A DNA stretch of 64,000 nt, taken from the NCBI GenBank assembly GCA_013359265.1, contig JABWCD010000015.1, positions 40,329 through 104,328 of the forward strand, read 5' to 3'. This DNA is from Candidatus Hydrogenedentota bacterium (GTDB lineage Bacteria; Hydrogenedentota; Hydrogenedentia; Hydrogenedentales; SLHB01). The notes beneath the pieces are model-generated. The model saw nothing but the letters and a program-made list of their open reading frames with translations. It made no database searches and was not told where the DNA came from. Numbering within the stretch: position 1 is the first letter of the stretch; each line of letters begins with the position of its first letter. A program made the translations under genes and the position numbers. Shown in pieces: positions 3,001 through 62,846 of the stretch.

Positions 3001-3706
3001 GGGCGAGCGGCCATTCGCCCTGATAGTCGATTTCAACGACGCGGCCTTGGCCTATCCTGCCGCATTGAACAAAGCCGAGCCCGGAGGTCCATTCCGCCGT
3101 CCGCTCCGCGCCGAGTCCGGTGGTCACGATCGCGCCCGATTCGTCCGGCGCGAACTCGTCGAGAAACGCTTTTAGTGAGTCCGGCAGGGTATGCCGGTGA
3201 TGGGCGAGCACAAGGCCAGTGCCGCCGCGGACTCTGTCGGCCAAGACCTGGAACACTTCCGGGGGCAATACGCTGAAATCGAAGTTGGCCGCGACAATGG
3301 CATCGAGCTTTCTGTCGAGTTTGTCGAGTAGATCGTGGACCACTTCATCGTGCGACGTACCTGGAATTTTGCGCGGGTACGCGTCTGGGCGGCCGAGGTG
3401 TGTGGCGTCCCACAGCGGGACAACCTCGGCGCGCATCTCGAGGCGGTGGGCCAGCTCCGCGGCGTCGCGCAACGCAAACCGCGGCGCGATGAACAGCACG
3501 CGCAACGGGCCTCCGTCCAACGGCACACCCCACTGCACGCCACCCTCGAGCGGCGGAATGACGATAGGCGCGAAGGCCGCGTCGCGTGAGTCGAGTTTTG
3601 GGGACGAATCTCCGAAGGGAAACGCAAGCGCGGCGTACGACGCAAGGAGCGCCGTGGAGTATACGATAGCGGCGCTCAACCGGCGAACCCGCAAGTTCGA
3701 GATCAC
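1..3706 (-). CDS. Large secreted glycoside-hydrolase family protein with a GH42-like (beta-galactosidase-like) core. The gene runs off the window at position 1 (3' end outside). The start is uncertain: GTG 3706, TTG 3694 or ATG 3781.
   Basis: Reverse-strand frame (end coordinate mod 3 = 1) reads through without stops from ~3781 to position 1. This explains why no long ORF is listed (no in-window stop). The N-terminus MISNLRVRRLSAAIVYSTALLASYAALA|FP is signal-peptide-like. The internal Cys cluster EGNCLSAAREDLCRCTHCLAGFAEYLNKTYAGLDALNRAWGT resembles the GH42 Zn-site plus the 'LNxAWGT' motif. All other listed ORFs in 1..3700 are short and Arg-rich (antisense artefacts). Confidence 0.6.
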   Translation of the reverse strand, partial: MISNLRVRRLSAAIVYSTALLASYAALAFPFGDSSPKLDSRDAAFAPIVIPPLEGGVQWGVPLDGGPLRVLFIAPRFALRDAAELAHRLEMRAEVVPLWDATHLGRPDAYPRKIPGTSHDEVVHDLLDKLDRKLDAIVAANFDFSVLPPEVFQVLADRVRGGTGLVLAHHRHTLPDSLKAFLDEFAPDESGAIVTTGLGAERTAEWTSGLGFVQCGRIGQGRVVEIDYQGEWPLAHCLIPALANPLLAEQEDFDTYLSLAARAVRWAGGRDVPVAIAGVSAKPAPGPEEIQIPPGLEEMVDANLPTGATILHPFQLQLAAPADKTYVVRAGVRQRGRNQPPITITPKRDALRKGSQTHDFVVVAGAGEYWLDIWLLDGDKVAEWYSEVVTIDSWPSIADLALSKSFVLPQDSIGITFTMPARQRPCLAMARATDPLGRIVAERHQPIPPETALVQLGLGFADLIGDMVKVEVFVSDRDAVVMSEWDARNCAYAYKHLPVRGPNPTDRFDVVADVSGGVEFNARANIRSLAAQGFGAVSFPATEESLRVMTSLGLRVVPQITSYLPYHSPPAEVRAPCINNPEFIASEQTYLKGMAQLVRDYPTAAVSLGEGNCLSAAREDLCRCTHCLAGFAEYLNKTYAGLDALNRAWGTSHESFAAAAPATAQQARDNKRYAPWIDFRLFMDASFARTHVSARGAVRMADMRSRTGLVARAADELYSGYDWSALASQLDMLATPAGLRAIEIARASRPASGIGGIQLPADLSPETLRWLPWYALLHRAHSIWWPDVTASTAAVPAMAAVDPFGDVAPFAPEFFGESTALQGGLARLWLKSAPSKADIAIYTSRTSAWLNEVDNQFGVSSAETEGAFASALSALGYAYDFVPAHRVEKAGFAGYRVLILPMARALSDAEVAAIRSFAAAGGCVIADIAPGAFNEHGVPRESPPLADTFGIRYANASRAAPPANALAELKIDGHKVSGDFADVRADEGVEPAGAQTGGLANTTPVWLLRSEQPLSLLINHSVNAPALDRARGMLDEVLRSAGATRTVEFESRRGRVFQGERFAAAYGNAALVALLANRDTTDELQKVKLKFDRSAHVYDLRAGMKVLRPAKVEAELVRGGAALYSALPYEIVSCTLTAPPSVQAGARAPLHIALDTGKATPGDHLVRIDVFAVTTETLVPLPHYGQEIVCEKGEGDAYVPFALNDPATRYRIVARDLLTGVSGEALVNLTVGRLH

Positions 3707-4913: not shown

Positions 4914-5471
4914 ATGACTCTCGCAAACCGCATTACCGTTGGGCGCCTCGTTTTGGTGCCCGTGTTTGTCGTGTTGATCATGTCCTACACACGGGATCAA
5001 CAGTGGCTTCGTTACGCCGCGCTGGGTGTGTTCGTGGCGGCGTCGATCTCCGACGGCATCGACGGGTTCATCGCGCGCGCGTACAACCAGAAGACGAAGT
5101 TGGGCGCGGTGCTCGATCCGCTCGCGGACAAGCTGCTGATCAATCTTGCGCTCGTATTCCTGGCCGTGAACGAGGAACTGCGCACACCGGTGCCCGCATG
5201 GTTTCCGGTGATCATACTCGGGCGCGACGTGATCATCGTGATTGGCGCATACTTGATCAACGAGTATTTCGGGCCGGTGCGGGCGCGGCCGCAAATCAGC
5301 GGCAAGCTGACGACGGCGTTTCAGATGGCGCTCATTATCGCGGTGCTGCTCGAATTGCCGCCGCGCGTTGTGTTCGGGATTCTGTATTTCACGTTGGCGG
5401 TCGCGATCGTTTCGTTTGCCGATTACCTCCGCGCGGGGATCAAACAAGTCGGAAATGAGGACCAAGCCTGA
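4914..5471 (+). CDS. pgsA: CDP-diacylglycerol--glycerol-3-phosphate 3-phosphatidyltransferase (CDP-alcohol phosphatidyltransferase family)
   Basis: DGIDGFIAR...G...DPLADK motif (D-G-x2-A-R...G-x3-D-x3-D). Multiple TM helices. The stop overlaps the der start by 1 nt. Confidence 0.85.
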   Translation: MTLANRITVGRLVLVPVFVVLIMSYTRDQQWLRYAALGVFVAASISDGIDGFIARAYNQKTKLGAVLDPLADKLLINLALVFLAVNEELRTPVPAWFPVIILGRDVIIVIGAYLINEYFGPVRARPQISGKLTTAFQMALIIAVLLELPPRVVFGILYFTLAVAIVSFADYLRAGIKQVGNEDQA

Positions 5472-6823
5472 TGGCGCGCAAAGCGAAACTGCCGTTGGTC
5501 GCGATCTGCGGCCGGCCCAACGTGGGCAAGTCGACGCTGTTCAACCGCATTGTGGGACGCCACAGCGCGATCGTTCACGACGAGGCGGGAGTGACGCGCG
5601 ACCGCGCGTACGGCGTCGCGGAGTGGGATGGTCGAAAGTTTCGGGTGGTGGACACGGGCGGGATCGTCGAGGACCCGACCGACCCCGTGACGCACAAGAT
5701 GCAGGAACAGGTGAAGGCGGCGCTGGACGAGGCCAGCATCATCGTTTTTGTCATCGACGGGCAGCACGTGTTGACGAAGGGCGACTTCGACATTCGCGAC
5801 AACCTGTTCAAGCACAGCAAGCCGATCATCGTCGCGGCGAACAAACTCGATAACGCAAGACTTCGCGAGAACCGCACGGAGTTTTACGAGTTGGGGTTGG
5901 GCGATCCGATTGCCGTGTCGTCGGGGCACGGGCTTGGTATCGAGGATCTGGTGGATGCGATCGCCGCTCACCTGCCGGAGAAGGTCGAGCACGTCGAGGA
6001 GATCGAGGAGCGGCAGGTGACGCGCGTGGCCATTCTCGGCAAGCCGAACGTCGGCAAGTCGTCGTACGTAAACGCGATTCTCAATGAGGAGCGGAGCATT
6101 GTCGACGATACCCCCGGCACTACGCGGGACGCGATCGACATCGATTTCAGGTGGAAGGGCAAAGACTATCTTCTTATCGATACCGCGGGCCTGCGAAAAA
6201 AGGCGGGTATCCGGAAGGAAGTCGAGCGGTTCAGCGTGGCGCGATCCTTGCGCGCCGTGCGCCGCGCGGACGTGTGCCTCGTGCTGATGAACGCCGACGA
6301 GGGCATCACCGAACAGGACAAACGCATCGTCAGCTACATCGTCGAGCAGGGCCGGGCGATGATTCTCGTGTGGACGAAATGGGACCTGGTCCAAGACAAG
6401 GAACGGCGCTTCAAGGACCTTGCCGACGAGATTGAATTCAAAGCGCCGTTCCTGAAACACGTGCCGAGCGTGACAATCTCGAACGTGACGCGGCAGCGCG
6501 TTTTTACCGTCTTCGAGTACATCGATCGCGTGGCGGCGGAGGCGGAGAAACGAATCCCTACGCACGAACTGAACAAGTTCGTCGAGGTCCTCCGCGCGAA
6601 CCAGGCGCCCGCGCTGCATCATGGCAAGATCGCGCGCATCAAGTACGCGACGCAGGTCAGCGTGAAACCGACGACGTTTGTGCTGTTCGTAAACAAGAAG
6701 GGGTTCTTCCACTTCAGTTACCTGCGCCACATCGAGAACCAGTTGCGCGAGAAGTACGGGTTCGACGGTGTGCCGGTCGTGCTCGAGCTGCGCGAGGGCG
6801 AGAAGCGGGAGGAGGAGGGGTGA
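5471..6823 (+). CDS. der: Ribosome-associated GTPase Der/EngA (tandem GTPase domains + KH-like C-terminus)
   Basis: Two P-loops GRPNVGKST and GKPNVGKSS, each with DTGG/DTAG G3 and NKxD G4 motifs. Confidence 0.95.
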   Translation: MARKAKLPLVAICGRPNVGKSTLFNRIVGRHSAIVHDEAGVTRDRAYGVAEWDGRKFRVVDTGGIVEDPTDPVTHKMQEQVKAALDEASIIVFVIDGQHVLTKGDFDIRDNLFKHSKPIIVAANKLDNARLRENRTEFYELGLGDPIAVSSGHGLGIEDLVDAIAAHLPEKVEHVEEIEERQVTRVAILGKPNVGKSSYVNAILNEERSIVDDTPGTTRDAIDIDFRWKGKDYLLIDTAGLRKKAGIRKEVERFSVARSLRAVRRADVCLVLMNADEGITEQDKRIVSYIVEQGRAMILVWTKWDLVQDKERRFKDLADEIEFKAPFLKHVPSVTISNVTRQRVFTVFEYIDRVAAEAEKRIPTHELNKFVEVLRANQAPALHHGKIARIKYATQVSVKPTTFVLFVNKKGFFHFSYLRHIENQLREKYGFDGVPVVLELREGEKREEEG

Positions 6824-6855
6824 TTTTGGATTTTGGACTTTGGATTTTGGATTGG
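6822..6855. repeat. Left arm of an imperfect long-range inverted repeat built from ATTTTGG-type heptads
   Basis: gattttggattttggactttggattttggattgg. Its reverse complement matches 6995..7026. Confidence 0.7.
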
Positions 6856-6994
6856 AAGTATGGCGGCGCGCAGTGGACGGCGACAGGTGCGCGCGATTCG
6901 CTCATGTGCGCGGAGCAAGAGCGAAACGACCCAAAGGACAAGAAGGACCTAAACAACGCCGGGCGGAGGGTCTGCGCCTACGAGGTTGGTCTTC

Positions 6995-7026
6995 AATCGA
7001 GAATCCAAAATCCAGAATCCAAATTC
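6995..7026. repeat. Right arm of the inverted heptad repeat (AATCCAAAATCCAGAATCCAAA)
   Basis: caatcgagaatccaaaatccagaatccaaatt. A shared 13-mer aatccaaaatcca is the reverse complement of the left arm. Confidence 0.7.
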
Positions 7027-7049
7027 GTTCAATTGTGGAAGACGGCGGC

Positions 7050-7685
7050 ATGTTAGCGACGGTACTCGCCATTGTTGCGTCGTATGTCCTCGGCTCGGTC
7101 CCCACGGGCCTTTGGCTGGGGTTGTGGCTGCGCAAGGTTGACATCCGCGAACACGGCAGTAAGAACATCGGCGCGACGAACACGATGCGCGTGTTGGGAA
7201 AGGGCCTTGGCGCGACCGCGCTGGCGGGCGACGCGCTAAAGGGCCTGATTCCGGTGTTGTTCGTCTCGCGGCTGAGCGACTGGCCGTACGCGGCGCTGGC
7301 GTGCGGTATCGCGGCGATTCTCGGCCACCTCGCGTCGGTCTTCCTGCGTTTCAAAGGCGGCAAGGGCGTCGCGACAAGTCTCGGCGTGTTCCTCGCGCTG
7401 TGTCCATTGCCGACGCTTGCCGCGGCTGTTACTTTTTTTGTTTTGGTATTTGCGACACGGATGGTCAGCGTGGGTTCGATCGGCGGGGCCATCGCTATGA
7501 CCGCAGGCGTGTATCTCATTCCGCACGATGTCGCTACCGCGCCGACGCACTTGATGCCGGGAGGTTGGGCGCTGCGCATCGTGGTGACGATCGTCGCGTT
7601 GCTGGTCATCGTGAAGCATCGCGCGAACATCGGCCGAATTATCCGCGGCGAGGAAAGCAAAGTTTTTTCAAAAGAATTGAAGTAG
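7050..7685 (+). CDS. plsY: Glycerol-3-phosphate acyltransferase PlsY
   Basis: GSKNIGATN motif and hydrophobic TM profile. The ORF track starts at 6768, but the Arg-rich upstream part overlaps the repeat element. The ATG at 7050 gives the canonical MLATVLAIV N-terminus. Confidence 0.85.
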   Translation: MLATVLAIVASYVLGSVPTGLWLGLWLRKVDIREHGSKNIGATNTMRVLGKGLGATALAGDALKGLIPVLFVSRLSDWPYAALACGIAAILGHLASVFLRFKGGKGVATSLGVFLALCPLPTLAAAVTFFVLVFATRMVSVGSIGGAIAMTAGVYLIPHDVATAPTHLMPGGWALRIVVTIVALLVIVKHRANIGRIIRGEESKVFSKELK

Positions 7686-11269: not shown

Positions 11270-12427
11270 ATGAGTGAGTGGAATTCGAGATCGGTGCGCG
11301 TGGTGCTGCTGCACAACTTCCTGTCGCCGACGCGCATCCCCTTGTTCGAGGCCCTCGCCGAACGCTTCGATCTTGACGTGTGGATACTCGGCGACATTCG
11401 ATCCGTGCGCGCGTGGCCGGCGGACGCGCCGGGCGCGCGTGCCCGGATTCGGACGTTGCCCCACTACACCATTCCTCTTGGCAGCCGATACAACGTCGTC
11501 CTCATTAACTACACGTTGCGCCGCGAATTGGCGCGTCTGAAGCCAGACGCAATCATTTGCTGCGGGTGGGATACGCCGGCGGCGTTCCTTGCTGCGCGAT
11601 TTGCGAGGCGAACCGGAACGCCGTTTATCGTGTGGAGCGGCAGCACGCCGGCGGAAACGACATTCGTGCGGCGCGTGACCAAGCCGTGGGTGCGCACGCT
11701 GGTGTGCGGCGCGGGCGCGTGGGTCGCATACGGGTCGCGCGCAAAAGAATATCTCGTGTCGCTCGGCGCGAACACGGACAAGACGTTCCTCGCCCACAAC
11801 ACCGTCGAACTGGCAGATTTCGCAAATGCGTGTGCGGCATCGGATGGCGTTGCATTGCGGGCGCGGCTGGGAATAGCGACGAAATATGTTGTGCTTTACT
11901 GCGGAAACCTGCTCGACTTGAAGGGTGTTGGAGACTTGATAGAAGCATTTTCGAAATTGGGCGAAAGCGACATAACGCTTGTACTCGTGGGAAGTGGCAA
12001 ACACGAAACGAAGTACCGCGCGCGCGCGAAGGAATTGGGTATCTCCGGCCGCGTTGTATTCGCGGGGTTTGCCCAGCCAGGCGATATGTCCGCGTATTAC
12101 GCCTTGGGCGATACCTTGATCGTGCCCTCGCGCAAGGAAGTTTGGGGGCTGGTAATCAACGAAGCGCTGGCTTGCGGCGTGCCGGTGATTGCGACCGACG
12201 CGTGCGGCGCGACGCCCGACCTCATCCGCGACGGCGAAAACGGATTCGTCGTTCCCGCGCGCAACCCCGACGCGCTCGCAGGCGCCATTGACGCGTACTT
12301 CGCTCACCCGGAGCGGCACCGTGCGATGCGCGATGCCGCGCGAGCATCGATCGCGCCGTTCACGATTGAGCGCGCCGCGGACGCATTTGTAGACGCTGTG
12401 CGCTGCGCCATGGGTAATCGGGCATGA
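11270..12427 (+). CDS. Glycosyltransferase family 4 (GT-B, group 1)
   Basis: EVWGLVINEALACGVPVIATD (E-x7-E motif) and C-terminal GT1 fold. Confidence 0.85.
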   Translation: MSEWNSRSVRVVLLHNFLSPTRIPLFEALAERFDLDVWILGDIRSVRAWPADAPGARARIRTLPHYTIPLGSRYNVVLINYTLRRELARLKPDAIICCGWDTPAAFLAARFARRTGTPFIVWSGSTPAETTFVRRVTKPWVRTLVCGAGAWVAYGSRAKEYLVSLGANTDKTFLAHNTVELADFANACAASDGVALRARLGIATKYVVLYCGNLLDLKGVGDLIEAFSKLGESDITLVLVGSGKHETKYRARAKELGISGRVVFAGFAQPGDMSAYYALGDTLIVPSRKEVWGLVINEALACGVPVIATDACGATPDLIRDGENGFVVPARNPDALAGAIDAYFAHPERHRAMRDAARASIAPFTIERAADAFVDAVRCAMGNRA

Positions 12428-61567: not shown

Positions 61568-62681
61568 AGATCCCCAACGGGAGCACGGCGTAGTCCGGAA
61601 ATACGCGCGAGAAATCCGACATGCCGCTGTGCCGCGCGAGAATGGGCGCAAGCACGTCGCGGTAGTTGTTCTGCACCGGCAAATCGCCGGGGGCTTCGAG
61701 TTTGTCCATAGCGAGACCTTTCCAGTCGCAGTATACCTTGCCGCCGCGCGCGCCGCCCCCCATGACGAACATGACGCTGGCGCGGCCGTGGTCGGTGCCG
61801 AGCGACGCGTTTTCGTACACGCGGCGGCCAAATTCGGTCATCACGACGAGTGTGGTATTGCGCATCGCACCGTTCAGGTCGGCGTGGAACGCGGCCATGC
61901 CTTCGGCCAACTGCTTCATGAGGGGGTCCATCAAGGCGCCCGACGCGAAATGCGAATCCCACCCGCCGAGATCAAGACAGGCCGCTTCCAATCCGACATT
62001 CGCTTTCAGCATTTGCGCGATGCGGCAGAGTCCATCGCCAAGTTGGCCCTGGGGATAGTTTGCGCCGTTGCTTGGCGTGTAACTCTTCTCGTCGAGTTGC
62101 GTGATCTTTCCGAGCGCGGCGAGTGTCGAGCGCGCGGCGACGCCGAGCGCGTCCGTTTCGGGTGCGTAGAGGCGTTCGAGCGCGGACATCGCGGCGGGCG
62201 CGCGTTCGCCGAGCGCGAAATCTGCGAAGGATTCCATGACGACCGTCGCGGGAGCGCCGCGCAAGGCCTCCGGGGCGGCACTGCCGATGGCAACGGCTGC
62301 CAGTGGGCCGCCGGGGCCGTTTGGGCGGTAGCGCAAATACCGTCCAAGCCAGCCGCCGCCACCGGTACCGCCATGCTCCATCGAGTCCTGCGCTTCGAAG
62401 TGCGAGCGGGTCTGGTCCTCGGAGCCGGCGCAATGAACGATGGCGAGGTCGCCGGCGCGGTAGAGATCGGCGAGCGGCGCGAGCTGCGGATTGAGCGCGA
62501 AGGTCCCGTCGAGGGGTGCAGTCGATTGTTTGGATATGCCGACTAACGGACGCGCGTTGTAGTACGCATCGTCCTCGACTGGCACGACCATGTTGAGGCC
62601 GTCCGCGCCGCCGCGGAGAAAGATGACGACGAGGGCGTTCTTCGAGTCGCCGTTTCCGTTGATGAAGCCTGTGTTTTGCAT
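61560..62681 (-). CDS. DUF1501 domain protein (sulfatase-like fold)
   Basis: LVVIFLRGGADGLNMVVP N-terminal hallmark. 373 aa. Overlaps the sigma factor gene start by a few nt. Confidence 0.8.
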   Translation of the reverse strand: MQNTGFINGNGDSKNALVVIFLRGGADGLNMVVPVEDDAYYNARPLVGISKQSTAPLDGTFALNPQLAPLADLYRAGDLAIVHCAGSEDQTRSHFEAQDSMEHGGTGGGGWLGRYLRYRPNGPGGPLAAVAIGSAAPEALRGAPATVVMESFADFALGERAPAAMSALERLYAPETDALGVAARSTLAALGKITQLDEKSYTPSNGANYPQGQLGDGLCRIAQMLKANVGLEAACLDLGGWDSHFASGALMDPLMKQLAEGMAAFHADLNGAMRNTTLVVMTEFGRRVYENASLGTDHGRASVMFVMGGGARGGKVYCDWKGLAMDKLEAPGDLPVQNNYRDVLAPILARHSGMSDFSRVFPDYAVLPLGIYA

Positions 62682-62846
62682 GGTTAGGAGTCCAAGCCGA
62701 TGGGGGTTGCGGGAGGAATGGGAGCTATGGGAAGAATGGGAGCAATGAGACGAACAGGAGATGCAGATGTACGTCGGCGAAATTGCGAGGATTCTCCCAG
62801 GGCTCTCATGGTTCGCATTCCTTCCATGGGTGTCATCAATCTCATT

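Follow-up and report, generated by a model that had tools for sequence, protein, structure and literature searches.

Inverted (ATTTTGG)4ATTG arrays at the der-plsY junction of a Candidatus Hydrogenedentota genome as a probable case of the intergenic heptanucleotide repeat class

The der-plsY junction of this Candidatus Hydrogenedentota genome carries two copies of (ATTTTGG)4ATTG in inverted orientation, which very probably belong to the class of intergenic heptanucleotide tandem repeats (Mrazek LSSR, STRR and the repeats of Rehm). This element is not what remains of a transposon, nor is it a conserved RNA regulator. Its arms follow from a border rule, by which the 5' end of the G-rich strand of an array lies against a gene border, and not from mobile-element ends or a purpose-built stem; the interior is an ordinary unconstrained spacer. 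As the best overall explanation we favor, as probable, this heptanucleotide-array identity combined with a stem role of the arms on a der-plsY co-transcript. The features are given below in positions of the window, the whole stretch of 64 kb that was analyzed.

5471-6823, plus strand: der, encoding the ribosome-biogenesis GTPase Der, the upstream gene (from the ORF list)
6823-6854, G-rich strand plus: left array, (ATTTTGG)4 + ATTG (direct reading, Tandem Repeats Finder, repeat search)
6855-6993, strandless: interior, 139 nt, 62% GC, without detectable constraint
6994-7025, G-rich strand minus: right array, (ATTTTGG)4 + ATTG (direct reading, Tandem Repeats Finder, repeat search)
7026-7049, plus strand: 24-nt linker from the right array to the plsY start, with SD-like GGAAGA at 7037-7042
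7050-7685, plus strand: plsY, encoding glycerol-3-phosphate acyltransferase, the downstream gene, ATG at 7050
6820-7056, plus strand: spurious 78-aa ORF, reading through both arrays
6768-7049, plus strand: spurious extension of plsY, reading through the arrays

The left array, read on the plus strand, consists of ATTTTGG, ATTTTGG, ACTTTGG and ATTTTGG followed by ATTG, with a single substitution in the third unit. Its 5' end abuts the der stop and overlaps it by 1 nt: direct reading shows that the last base of the TGA (6821-6823) doubles as the first base of the first heptad. The right array is the reverse complement of a left-type array, placed 24 nt upstream of the plsY ATG, with its 5' end facing plsY and the inner tail ATTGAAGACC. 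It is degenerate, the minus strand reading AATTTGG, ATTCTGG, ATTTTGG, ATTCTCG and ATTG (4 substitutions). The preliminary description of this DNA had reported tandem ATTTTGG/ACTTTGG heptads right after the der stop and an inverted copy just before plsY, and both are real. At 6822-6853 Tandem Repeats Finder detected 4.6 copies of period 7 with 92% matches; at 7002-7023 it detected 3.1 heptad copies. The repeat search returned the inverted arms 6822-6854 and 6994-7026 (33 nt, 85% complementary, 139 nt apart), and the 13-nt perfect complement described previously is present (TGGATTTTGGATT). AT-rich heptads are otherwise absent from the window, as had been stated: the heptad pattern, allowing up to 3 mismatches, gave 6 matches in the 64 kb, all at this junction (shuffles: mean 0.46, 0 of 100 reaching 6), and Tandem Repeats Finder detected no further AT-rich heptad array there. 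About 150 kb from close relatives likewise contained no heptad array besides those at the der-plsY locus.

The flanking genes are well defined. The Der product is 100% identical to the NCBI entry "ribosome biogenesis GTPase Der" of a Candidatus Hydrogenedentes MAG, and the called der gene has Pfam matches to MMR_HSR1 and KH_dom-like. The sequence is identical in L001, a second, independent assembly of this strain, which shows that the der-plsY arrays are not an assembly artefact; the L001 plsY call matches Pfam PF02660 and agrees with the ATG at 7050, and the PlsY N-termini of relatives line up with the same start. The two ORFs that cross the arrays had been suspected as artefacts, rightly so on this evidence: the 78-aa ORF matched only itself among 5.8 billion proteins, and by direct reading all frames are free of stop codons within the arrays. 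No sigma-70-like promoter was found in the der-plsY spacer, which is weak evidence since Hydrogenedentes promoters are unknown. An intrinsic terminator was considered as an identity and rejected, no terminator-like site (a short GC-rich hairpin followed by a T run) being found on the plus strand between 6500 and 7300. The tRNA/tmRNA search of the spacer with ARAGORN detected nothing.

In relatives whose Der is 83-90% identical, both arrays persist at these two gene borders. The left array has the same position and orientation in L002, L003 and L135 and is offset by 5 nt in L006, and its 1-nt overlap with the stop was found in four lineages. Perfect four-unit right arrays lie at the same place in L002, L134, L135 and L006. 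In the window and in L002, L134 and L135 the linker from the right array to the ATG measures exactly 24 nt, and in L006 7 nt; its length is fixed and its sequence is not conserved, with no obvious SD in L134 and L135. Over 11 arrays from 5 Hydrogenedentes lineages only 13 of 308 positions deviate from the consensus, a sign of constraint on the arms, whereas the four-fold degenerate sites of der are 46-58% identical between array-bearing lineages against 42% expected by chance. The arrays are absent from more distant relatives (71-79% Der identity). They are also absent from L004 (87% Der identity), which has no spacer and an ATGA overlap of der and plsY, and from L132, with an 8-nt spacer; in the spacer-less relatives generally, the two genes overlap (ATGA) or lie 3-8 nt apart.

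This presence/absence polymorphism (ATGA in L004 and 8 nt in L132 against array-interior-array in the other relatives), the 33-nt terminal inverted repeats with 85% complementarity and a shared tail of arrays in Terriglobia, similar to that of the right arm (see below), could suggest a MITE, as had been proposed, or a foldback-type element: a cassette of ~235 bp with heptad arrays as TIRs, inserted between originally overlapping der and plsY. MITEs and REP/REPIN elements often lie between co-directional genes and, like the der-plsY arrays, are short, intergenic, inverted in symmetry and able to form RNA hairpins. MITEs are multicopy elements with duplicated flanking bases and an interior that is conserved. 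The der-plsY interior is unique and unconserved in comparison: blastn of 6855-6993 against the window and all fetched loci returned only itself and the same-strain L001, and the orthologous cassettes have wholly different interiors, those of L002, L003 and L006 being unalignable with that of the window (scores within the shuffle range). Direct reading of the flanks GGAGGGGTG and CGTTCAATTG found no common direct repeat and no target-site duplication. Elsewhere the arrays are mostly single and follow a gene-border rule, unlike random insertion, and we know of no transposase associated with heptad arrays. We conclude that a mobile element is highly unlikely here. REP/REPIN identity was rejected as well: each REP unit is a palindrome of its own, 20-40 nt long, and a single canonical arm self-folds at just -2.6 kcal/mol, i.e. 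without a hairpin of its own.

One marginal similarity was observed between the window interior and the reverse-complemented L002 interior, a GGAC-rich stretch scoring 30 against a shuffle maximum of 29. The idea of an invertible segment was dropped at this margin.

The RNA fold of 6815-7035 on the plus strand reached -89.5 kcal/mol against -67.5 +/- 4.3 for shuffles (z = -5.15), and together with the repeat search it bears out the earlier suggestion that pairing of the arms could give a long stem around a GC-rich loop. The minus strand folds about equally well (z = -5.56). The interior alone gave z = -0.21, and thus the excess over shuffles is due wholly to the arms. The folds of three lineages gave z = -3.4 to -5.2, and the interiors of four lineages folded no better than shuffles (z from -1.1 to +0.06). 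The modeled arm-arm RNA duplex pairs 28 of 32 positions at -37 kcal/mol. Compensated arm substitutions were not found in four Hydrogenedentes pairs (0 shared variants), and across 31 array pairs among the loci listed 9 of 113 variants were shared, 6 of them from one pair, which argues against strong selection for the stem itself. The SD-like GGAAGA of plsY sits outside the stem, and the stem therefore does not simply occlude plsY initiation.

The fold and the site directly upstream of plsY might also suggest a structured RNA controlling plsY translation, for instance a riboswitch, leader or sRNA sensing some signal. Rfam 15 gave no match for the whole window at the gathering score or for 6700-7150 at E <= 10, covariation was not detected, and the interior is unconserved and folds like shuffles in the four lineages. 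The element is moreover absent at 71-79% Der identity and from L004 and L132. A dedicated regulatory RNA is thus largely refuted and, in our estimate, extremely improbable. The preliminary description had tied its two proposals to further copies, to conservation or covariation in relatives and to a fold better than that of shuffled controls: no other copy of the whole element was found in the window and the fetched loci, and no covariation, while the arms are conserved and the fold does beat the shuffles.

The properties of the heptad as a class were measured on at least 120 loci listed from the genome scan (~870 kb). The arrays were detected in at least 8 phyla, including Cyanobacteria, Acidobacteriota, Chloroflexota, Planctomycetota, Verrucomicrobiota and Hydrogenedentota. 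About half of the listed GGATTTT-array loci are cyanobacterial, often with other heptad arrays directly adjacent. Single arrays occupy 69 of the 120 loci listed, and pairing is therefore not a defining feature of the class. Tandem arrays of period 7 dominate the same 870 kb (134 arrays, against 10, 11, 4 and 6 for periods 5, 6, 8 and 9). Counting units with at most 1 mismatch, 99 of the 154 arrays listed have four units, 31 have three, 15 have five and 9 have six or more. Neighboring heptads without G runs (GGTAATT, AGGAGTT, AGATTTT) also fall off sharply above 4.5 units, ATTTTAG, which has just one G per unit, is a frequent partner in array pairs, and TTTTGAA arrays were found among the listed loci as well (L116). 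The literature search for the exact heptad dimer returned only unrelated primer or probe matches.

The border rule was detected by a symmetric ORF test of 160 arrays among the loci listed, with crude ORF calls (longest ORFs of at least 100 codons). Within 20 nt of the 5' end of the G-rich strand, a co-directional ORF stops in 41 of 160 arrays and a diverging ORF starts in 44; the corresponding counts for the 3' end, taken as mirror image, are 8 and 10 of the 160. The 5' neighbor ORF was the nearer one in 95 cases against 30 (p = 5e-9), with median distances of 17 and 102 nt. Since der and plsY are co-directional and have an array at each border, an inverted pair is automatic under this rule. 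The der-plsY arrays share the features of the class, i.e. head-to-tail units of 7 nt, a non-coding site, four units and the border geometry; with regard to dispersal, they occur at this one locus within the 64 kb.

The Terriglobia contig L206 has an identical layout (stop-array ... array-start) at two tandem-gene junctions and contains 5 heptad arrays in 13.5 kb; arrays with a common tail of ~25-35 nt recur there at least three times. The right-arm tail of the window, ATTGAAGACCAACCTC, resembles this Terriglobia tail. The contig came from a scan of viral contigs, which gave 18 stretches with an array; at least one of them, L206, is really a Terriglobia chromosomal fragment, and we do not infer phage-borne spread.

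The closest known systems are the heptamers GGGAATC of Xanthomonas and GGGGA(C/T)T of Nostoc PCC 7120, which prefer four units and have the same border geometry, and whose inverted pairs are able to form stem-loops (Rehm et al. 2015, PMC4692102). Like them, the ATTTTGG arrays are intergenic tandem units of 7 nt with a four-unit preference, and in both the copy number and sequence vary among close relatives while the position is kept. GGGGATT read as GGATTGG has a GGATT core in common with GGATTTT. The ATTTTGG arrays differ in having two Gs per unit with no stable quadruplex predicted, in being AT-rich inside a genome of 60+% GC and apparently rare in that host, and in their occurrence in Hydrogenedentota and at least 8 phyla.

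G-quadruplex formation was demonstrated for the related three- and four-G heptamers and tied to their four-unit bias (Rehm et al. 2015, PMC4692102). Each canonical ATTTTGG array has exactly four GG tracts, and a two-tetrad quadruplex in DNA or RNA might accordingly explain its preference for four units. For a two-tetrad quadruplex joined by three 5-nt linkers ViennaRNA gave +12.8 kcal/mol, with no quadruplex in the MFE structure, against -8.4 for (GGGAATC)4. Heptads without G runs fall off sharply above 4.5 units as well, and the single-G ATTTTAG arrays are common partners, so that we consider the quadruplex explanation very unlikely for these arrays.

Slippage, perhaps favoring 7-nt units, and arm-arm conversion could produce the arrays as function-less microsatellites, their position reflecting tolerance and the stem being accidental. 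The slippage hypothesis for the heptamer excess reportedly goes back to Mrazek 2007 on long simple sequence repeats, and no function was ever shown for the heptamer class (Rehm et al. 2015, PMC4692102). The uncompensated arm variants and the two related lineages that do without any spacer agree with this explanation, and concerted evolution by slippage or conversion could homogenize arrays without function. Slippage predicts steadily falling lengths, however, and a sharp four-unit mode was seen, dropping from 99 to 15 arrays between four and five units. The same heptad with four units persists in five lineages with near-saturated synonymous sites, and the heptad recurs in at least 8 phyla. Neither the strong 5'-border asymmetry nor the fixed 24-nt linker is explained without selection or a directed process, and function-less microsatellites appear rather unlikely to us.

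The preferred reading adds to the heptanucleotide-array identity a role of the stem on the der-plsY transcript. If der and plsY are co-transcribed, as we infer, the (GGAUUUU)4 after the der stop would pair with the (AAAAUCC)4 upstream of plsY into a stem of ~28 bp, which would loop out the variable interior and bring the der stop beside the plsY initiation region. Duplexes longer than 20 bp are generally substrates of RNase III, and RNase III cleavage of the arm duplex could separate the der and plsY cistrons. In another scenario, a ribosome that terminates at the der UGA might melt the outer stem and free the A/C-rich right arm by the plsY start; such a melting step would preserve the translational coupling that spacer-less relatives get from the ATGA overlap. 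The geometry (1-nt stop overlap, fixed 24-nt linker, gene overlaps in spacer-less relatives) and the stem energy are consistent with coupling or processing. We propose stem processing or translational coupling tentatively, and hold with low confidence that co-transcription and stem formation take place in vivo.

The arrays could instead act as independent single-strand border signals, with pairing irrelevant or avoided. An (AAAAUCC)4 leader might recruit ribosomes (S1, standby site) or an RNA-binding protein, and (GGAUUUU)4 might act separately, for example as RNase E-type sites, for which the consensus is RN↓WUU. Arrays elsewhere are mostly single, and by the border rule the RNA entering a gene always carries (AAAAUCC)n; the fixed 24-nt linker and the lack of an obvious SD in L134 and L135 also fit such a signal. 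We know of no binding protein for heptad arrays. Binding of S1, Csp or CsrA was proposed for TAACTGA direct repeats directly upstream of start codons, which occur in marine Beggiatoaceae, Cyanobacteria and Bacteroidetes (MacGregor 2015, PMC4679880), and (TTTTGAA)3-4 or (TTCAAAA)3-4 near start codons of Nostoc PCC 7120 was linked to translation (Pradhan et al. 2022, preprint, 10.1101/2022.06.06.494920). If both arms are on one RNA, a duplex of -37 kcal/mol would out-compete single-strand readers unless melted, and we judge independent single-strand signals fairly improbable at this junction. Rho loading by the G-free (AAAAUCC)n was also considered and rejected, since about half of the listed carriers are cyanobacteria, which to our knowledge lack Rho.

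Both of these repeat systems are partial parallels. TAACTGA (2-6 copies) and ATTTTGG form heptamer arrays adjoining start codons, and both are scattered over phyla in a way that suggests transfer or a common reader; the TAACTGA sequence differs, and its arrays, of which just one set in 170 is inverted, are otherwise nearly always direct and described mainly from the start-codon side. TTTTGAA and TTTTGGA are one base apart, and both occur as 3-4 units in a row no more than 100 nt from a start codon or promoter, but the former is described from one cyanobacterium and upstream of genes only, with modest effects and an unresolved mechanism. The STRR of heterocystous cyanobacteria are likewise tandem heptamers in non-coding DNA, with a different heptad sequence. 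As reportedly described by Mazel et al. in 1990, they are abundant dispersed repeats used for fingerprinting, without a border rule or a four-unit mode. Three STRR heptamers are described from Calothrix PCC 7601. STRR and Rehm-type repeats are abundant genome-wide, whereas the copy number of ATTTTGG here looks low.

For this locus, the result is mostly tidying up: the element is not a transposon and not a riboswitch, the two crossing ORFs are artefactual, and the (ATTTTGG)4ATTG arrays are very probably a further example of an already described heptamer repeat class. The junction is also a compact natural test case, since related lineages have either the cassette or a direct gene overlap. More broadly, an AT-rich heptad with two Gs has, across many phyla, the same two unexplained regularities as the G-rich heptamers of Xanthomonas and Nostoc. 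A four-unit mode and a border rule in a heptad without a predicted quadruplex weaken the G-quadruplex explanation of the class, and favor in its place a reader that recognizes sequence or length, or a directed process that generates arrays at gene borders. As a speculation that we think quite unlikely, (ATTTTGG)4, and perhaps heptamer arrays generally, would mark gene borders in at least 8 phyla by a signal of quantised length and locked orientation, which a conserved cellular machine would read without quadruplex folding, and the Hydrogenedentes pairs would clamp a freely evolving spacer and so keep der-plsY coupling or processing intact. If this border-signal reading is true, the G-quadruplex rationale for the repeat class would be overturned.

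In the window, the der-plsY spacer carries two heptad arrays of the form (ATTTTGG)4ATTG, the left and right arms, and the element they form is a new member, by heptad and by phylum, of the gene-border heptamer repeats, a class that is known but functionally unexplained. The feature is genuine and non-random, and the arms were confirmed in sequence as stated in the preliminary description.

Features of the der-plsY spacer in the window, by direct sequence reading
6821-6823, plus strand: der stop codon TGA
6823-6854, G-rich strand (G-strand) on plus: left array, ATTTTGG ATTTTGG ACTTTGG ATTTTGG ATTG
6994-7025, read on the minus strand: right array, AATTTGG ATTCTGG ATTTTGG ATTCTCG ATTG
7050, plus strand: plsY start codon ATG, 24 nt past the right arm

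Tandem Repeats Finder detected period-7 arrays at both arms (4.6 and 3.1 copies), and a repeat search detected inverted arms of 33 nt, 85% complementary and 139 nt apart. The part of the source genome examined was 64 kb; all 6 matches to the heptad pattern in this window lie at the der-plsY locus (shuffle mean 0.46). An independent second assembly of this strain carries an identical element. The protein encoded upstream matches the Der GTPase of a Candidatus Hydrogenedentes MAG at 100% identity, and the gene downstream contains the PlsY domain PF02660. The ORFs crossing the spacer, suspected earlier to be artefacts, are indeed so: a homologue search with the 78-aa ORF across the element returned only the ORF itself, and the N-termini of relatives lend no support to the Arg-rich extension at the 5' end of plsY. 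Such spurious ORFs are possible only because the arrays have no stop codon in any frame.

An exact scan for GGATTTTGGATTTTGGATT in one genome per GTDB species detected at least 120 stretches; by record title, the matches listed comprise about 59 from Cyanobacteria, 22 from Acidobacteriota, 18 from Chloroflexota, 6 each from Verrucomicrobiota and Planctomycetota, and 9 others. Allowing one mismatch per unit, 31 arrays among these matches have three units, 99 four, 15 five and 9 six or more; the four-unit mode is not an ascertainment edge, since the query demanded only about 2.7 units. Array position was analyzed with both sides treated identically, using crude calls of ORFs of at least 100 codons. 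Among the matches listed, 41 of 160 arrays have a co-directional stop within 20 nt of the G-strand 5' end and 44 have a diverging start there, versus 8 and 10 mirror cases at the 3' end. The nearer neighbour is on the 5' side in 95 arrays versus 30 (p = 5e-9; medians 17 versus 102 nt), and in 64 versus 16 by a cruder greedy gene call. That each array is an independent site for a single-strand reader of the S1, Csp or RNase E type has some appeal, since arrays elsewhere are mostly single (69 of the 120 loci listed have one array within 8 kb), but we know of no reader for heptad arrays and consider this unlikely.

Where exactly two arrays occur among the matches listed, the hairpin-forming order (plus, then minus) is the commonest, 19 versus 6 for the opposite. 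In 13.5 kb, the Terriglobia contig L206 contains five four-unit arrays, and two of its tandem-gene junctions show the exact der-plsY layout of stop, array, array and start. Under the border rule, in which the G-strand 5' end adjoins the neighbouring ORF, an array at the der end would have its G-strand on plus and an array before plsY on minus; as the genes are co-directional, the two border arrays would necessarily form an inverted pair, so neither a transposon nor a stem designed as such is needed to account for the arms. Departures from consensus are common to both arms in 9 of 113 cases in 31 convergent pairs; 6 of the 9 come from one pair with a different heptad and none from the four Hydrogenedentes pairs. 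This lack of compensation is consistent with a border-rule origin of the inversion.

The window arrays match the class described by Rehm et al. 2015 (PMC4692102) on each class feature tested, except quadruplex competence. That work reported heptamers without established function, GGGAATC in Xanthomonas and GGGGA(C/T)T in Nostoc, with the same four-unit preference and border placement, and noted that inverted pairs may form stem-loops. Mrazek 2007, as summarised in later papers, gives heptanucleotides as the most over-represented long simple repeats; TAACTGA arrays lie directly upstream of start codons, with S1, Csp or CsrA proposed as readers (MacGregor 2015, PMC4679880), and (TTTTGAA)3-4 occurs near start codons in Nostoc 7120 (Pradhan 2022, 10.1101/2022.06.06.494920). 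A literature search for the GGATTTT dimer (the same heptad in another phase) as a bacterial repeat found no paper. The locus is ordinary for its class.

The four-unit preference of heptamer repeats has been attributed to the four G tracts required by a quadruplex (Rehm et al. 2015, PMC4692102). In the ViennaRNA quadruplex model the GGATTTT quadruplex (two tetrads, three 5-nt linkers) has an energy of +12.8 kcal/mol and no G4 appears in the MFE structure, versus -8.4 kcal/mol for (GGGAATC)4. Unselected neighbouring arrays of other heptads also drop sharply above 4.5 units in the 870 kb around the matches (L008-L127), so the four-unit regularity seems independent of G content as far as the model energy goes, and both results make a G-quadruplex element highly improbable. 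Perfect arrays of other heptads, for example AGATTTT, GGTAATT, AGGAGTT, GCGGATT and AGTCATT, are frequent beside GGATTTT arrays there, with 134 period-7 arrays versus 10, 11, 4 and 6 of periods 5, 6, 8 and 9 around the matches listed.

Several related arrays were noted. At window 62711-62746 there is a four-unit array of period 9, GGGAGGAAT GGGAGCTAT GGGAAGAAT GGGAGCAAT, with four GGG tracts, quadruplex-competent on paper; about 30 nt separate its G-strand 5' end from a minus-strand ORF that starts at 62681, the same border-abutting geometry as the heptads. In an Anaerolineae contig (L061:4313-4435), three direct (ATTTTGG)4ATTGG copies with 10-11-nt spacers form a 42-nt higher-order repeat. 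Cyanobacterial and acidobacterial convergent pairs (L025, L040, L055, L064, L066, L084) often set an (ATTTTGG)n arm against an (ATTTTAG)n arm, giving G.U wobbles on one strand's transcript and A.C mismatches on the other; a perfect DNA palindrome is avoided. L206 is a Terriglobia chromosomal fragment, though listed as viral in IMG/VR (its 1463-aa ORF matches a Terriglobia MAG protein at 88% identity), with array sites at 2494-2635, 3253-3280 and 12199-12317; three of its five arrays have a common 25-35-nt tail, ATTAAAGACCARAACCCTCCATC, which the right-arm tail of the window, ATTGAAGACCAACCTC, resembles. Right after the last GG, the octamer ATTGAAGA occurs more often than any other sequence (12 of 193 arrays, and 3 more carry ATTAAAGA; several phyla); it flanks arrays in the window (6986-6997), L006, L134, L045, L062, L089 and L217, and in L062 is itself expanded as (ATTGAAG)n.

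Among the Hydrogenedentes relatives, arrays stand at both borders in L002 (Der 90% identical to the window; left array beside the der stop, right array ahead of plsY), L003 (left side; Der 89%) with L134 (right side, same sample), L135, and L006, L007 and L133 (Der 83-84%). L004 and L005 (Der 87%) have no spacer, the genes overlapping in ATGA; array-free spacers measure 8 nt in L132 and 3-146 nt in L128-L131 (Der 71-79%). About 70 further, more distant plsY loci had no arrays (365 kb scanned in all, L128-L135 included). Four-fold degenerate sites of der are 46-58% identical between the window and array-carrying lineages, versus 42% by chance, so neutral sequence is near randomised. Over the 11 Hydrogenedentes arrays, only 13 of 308 positions depart from (ATTTTGG)4. 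In four lineages the left array shares one base with the stop codon. The linker from right array to ATG measures exactly 24 nt, with unconserved sequence, in the window (7026-7049), L002, L134 and L135, and 7 nt in L006; L134 and L135 linkers have no obvious Shine-Dalgarno motif. The reading of the arrays as function-less slippage products is improbable given this fixed linker, the four-unit mode, the heptad identity across phyla and the border asymmetry.

The arms and where they sit are conserved, unlike the interior: interiors are 139-174 nt and mutually unalignable, except for a block of about 40 nt in the close pair L003/L135. A MITE (proposed in the preliminary description) or foldback element would account for the presence/absence polymorphism of the cassette, and the recurrent ATTGAAGAC(C) tail is its sole other support; it is very unlikely, as the interior has no second copy in the window or the loci compared and is unconserved, and the flanking bases are not duplicated. 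In metagenome 3300020198, contigs break off within the interior: L003 ends 181 nt past the left array and L134 starts 86 nt before the right. This may reflect strain heterogeneity of the interior or trouble assembling through inverted arrays. The L002 interior (2895-2935) has four 9-nt units, GTCCTTTAG GTCCTCTTC GTCCTGTAC GTCCTTTCA, and the window interior (6923-6945) two GGAC-containing units in opposite orientation, GGACAAGAA GGACCTAAA; the likeness is marginal (score 30 versus shuffle maximum 29).

For 6815-7035, the predicted RNA fold reaches -89.5 kcal/mol (z = -5.15) on the plus strand and z = -5.56 on the minus strand; relatives fold likewise (L002 z = -3.4, L006 z = -4.6). The whole element thus beats shuffled controls, but the interior alone does not (z = -0.21), so the excess stability lies entirely in the arms (duplex -37.0 kcal/mol, 28 of 32 positions paired). 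Interiors of the other array-carrying lineages also fold no better than shuffles. A dedicated riboswitch or leader (a structured RNA element was the other earlier proposal) is extremely unlikely, lacking conservation, covariation and an Rfam match; the element is neither a MITE nor a conserved regulatory RNA. In L131 (11367-11455; Der 71%), without heptad arrays, the spacer holds an unrelated long hairpin (z = -3.9; arms CGAAAAAUGGGGACUGACUCGAAUUACCUCC and complement), so a long der-plsY stem may have arisen more than once.

If der and plsY share one RNA, the arms would pair into a predicted stem of about 28 bp, from the stop codon to 24 nt before the start codon, with the interior looped out. 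Duplexes that long are generic substrates of RNase III, and termination of a ribosome at UGA would melt the outer stem, leaving the A/C-rich right arm exposed beside the plsY start. Since cassette-free relatives couple the genes (ATGA overlap or 3-8-nt gap), preserved coupling, or controlled uncoupling by cleavage, is a reasonable role, which we propose tentatively; against it stand arm substitutions that are uncompensated, two strands that fold equally well and an SD-like GGAAGA that lies outside the stem.

Taken together, a cross-phylum, four-unit, border-locked heptad without a predicted G4 sharpens the question of what makes or reads such repeats.
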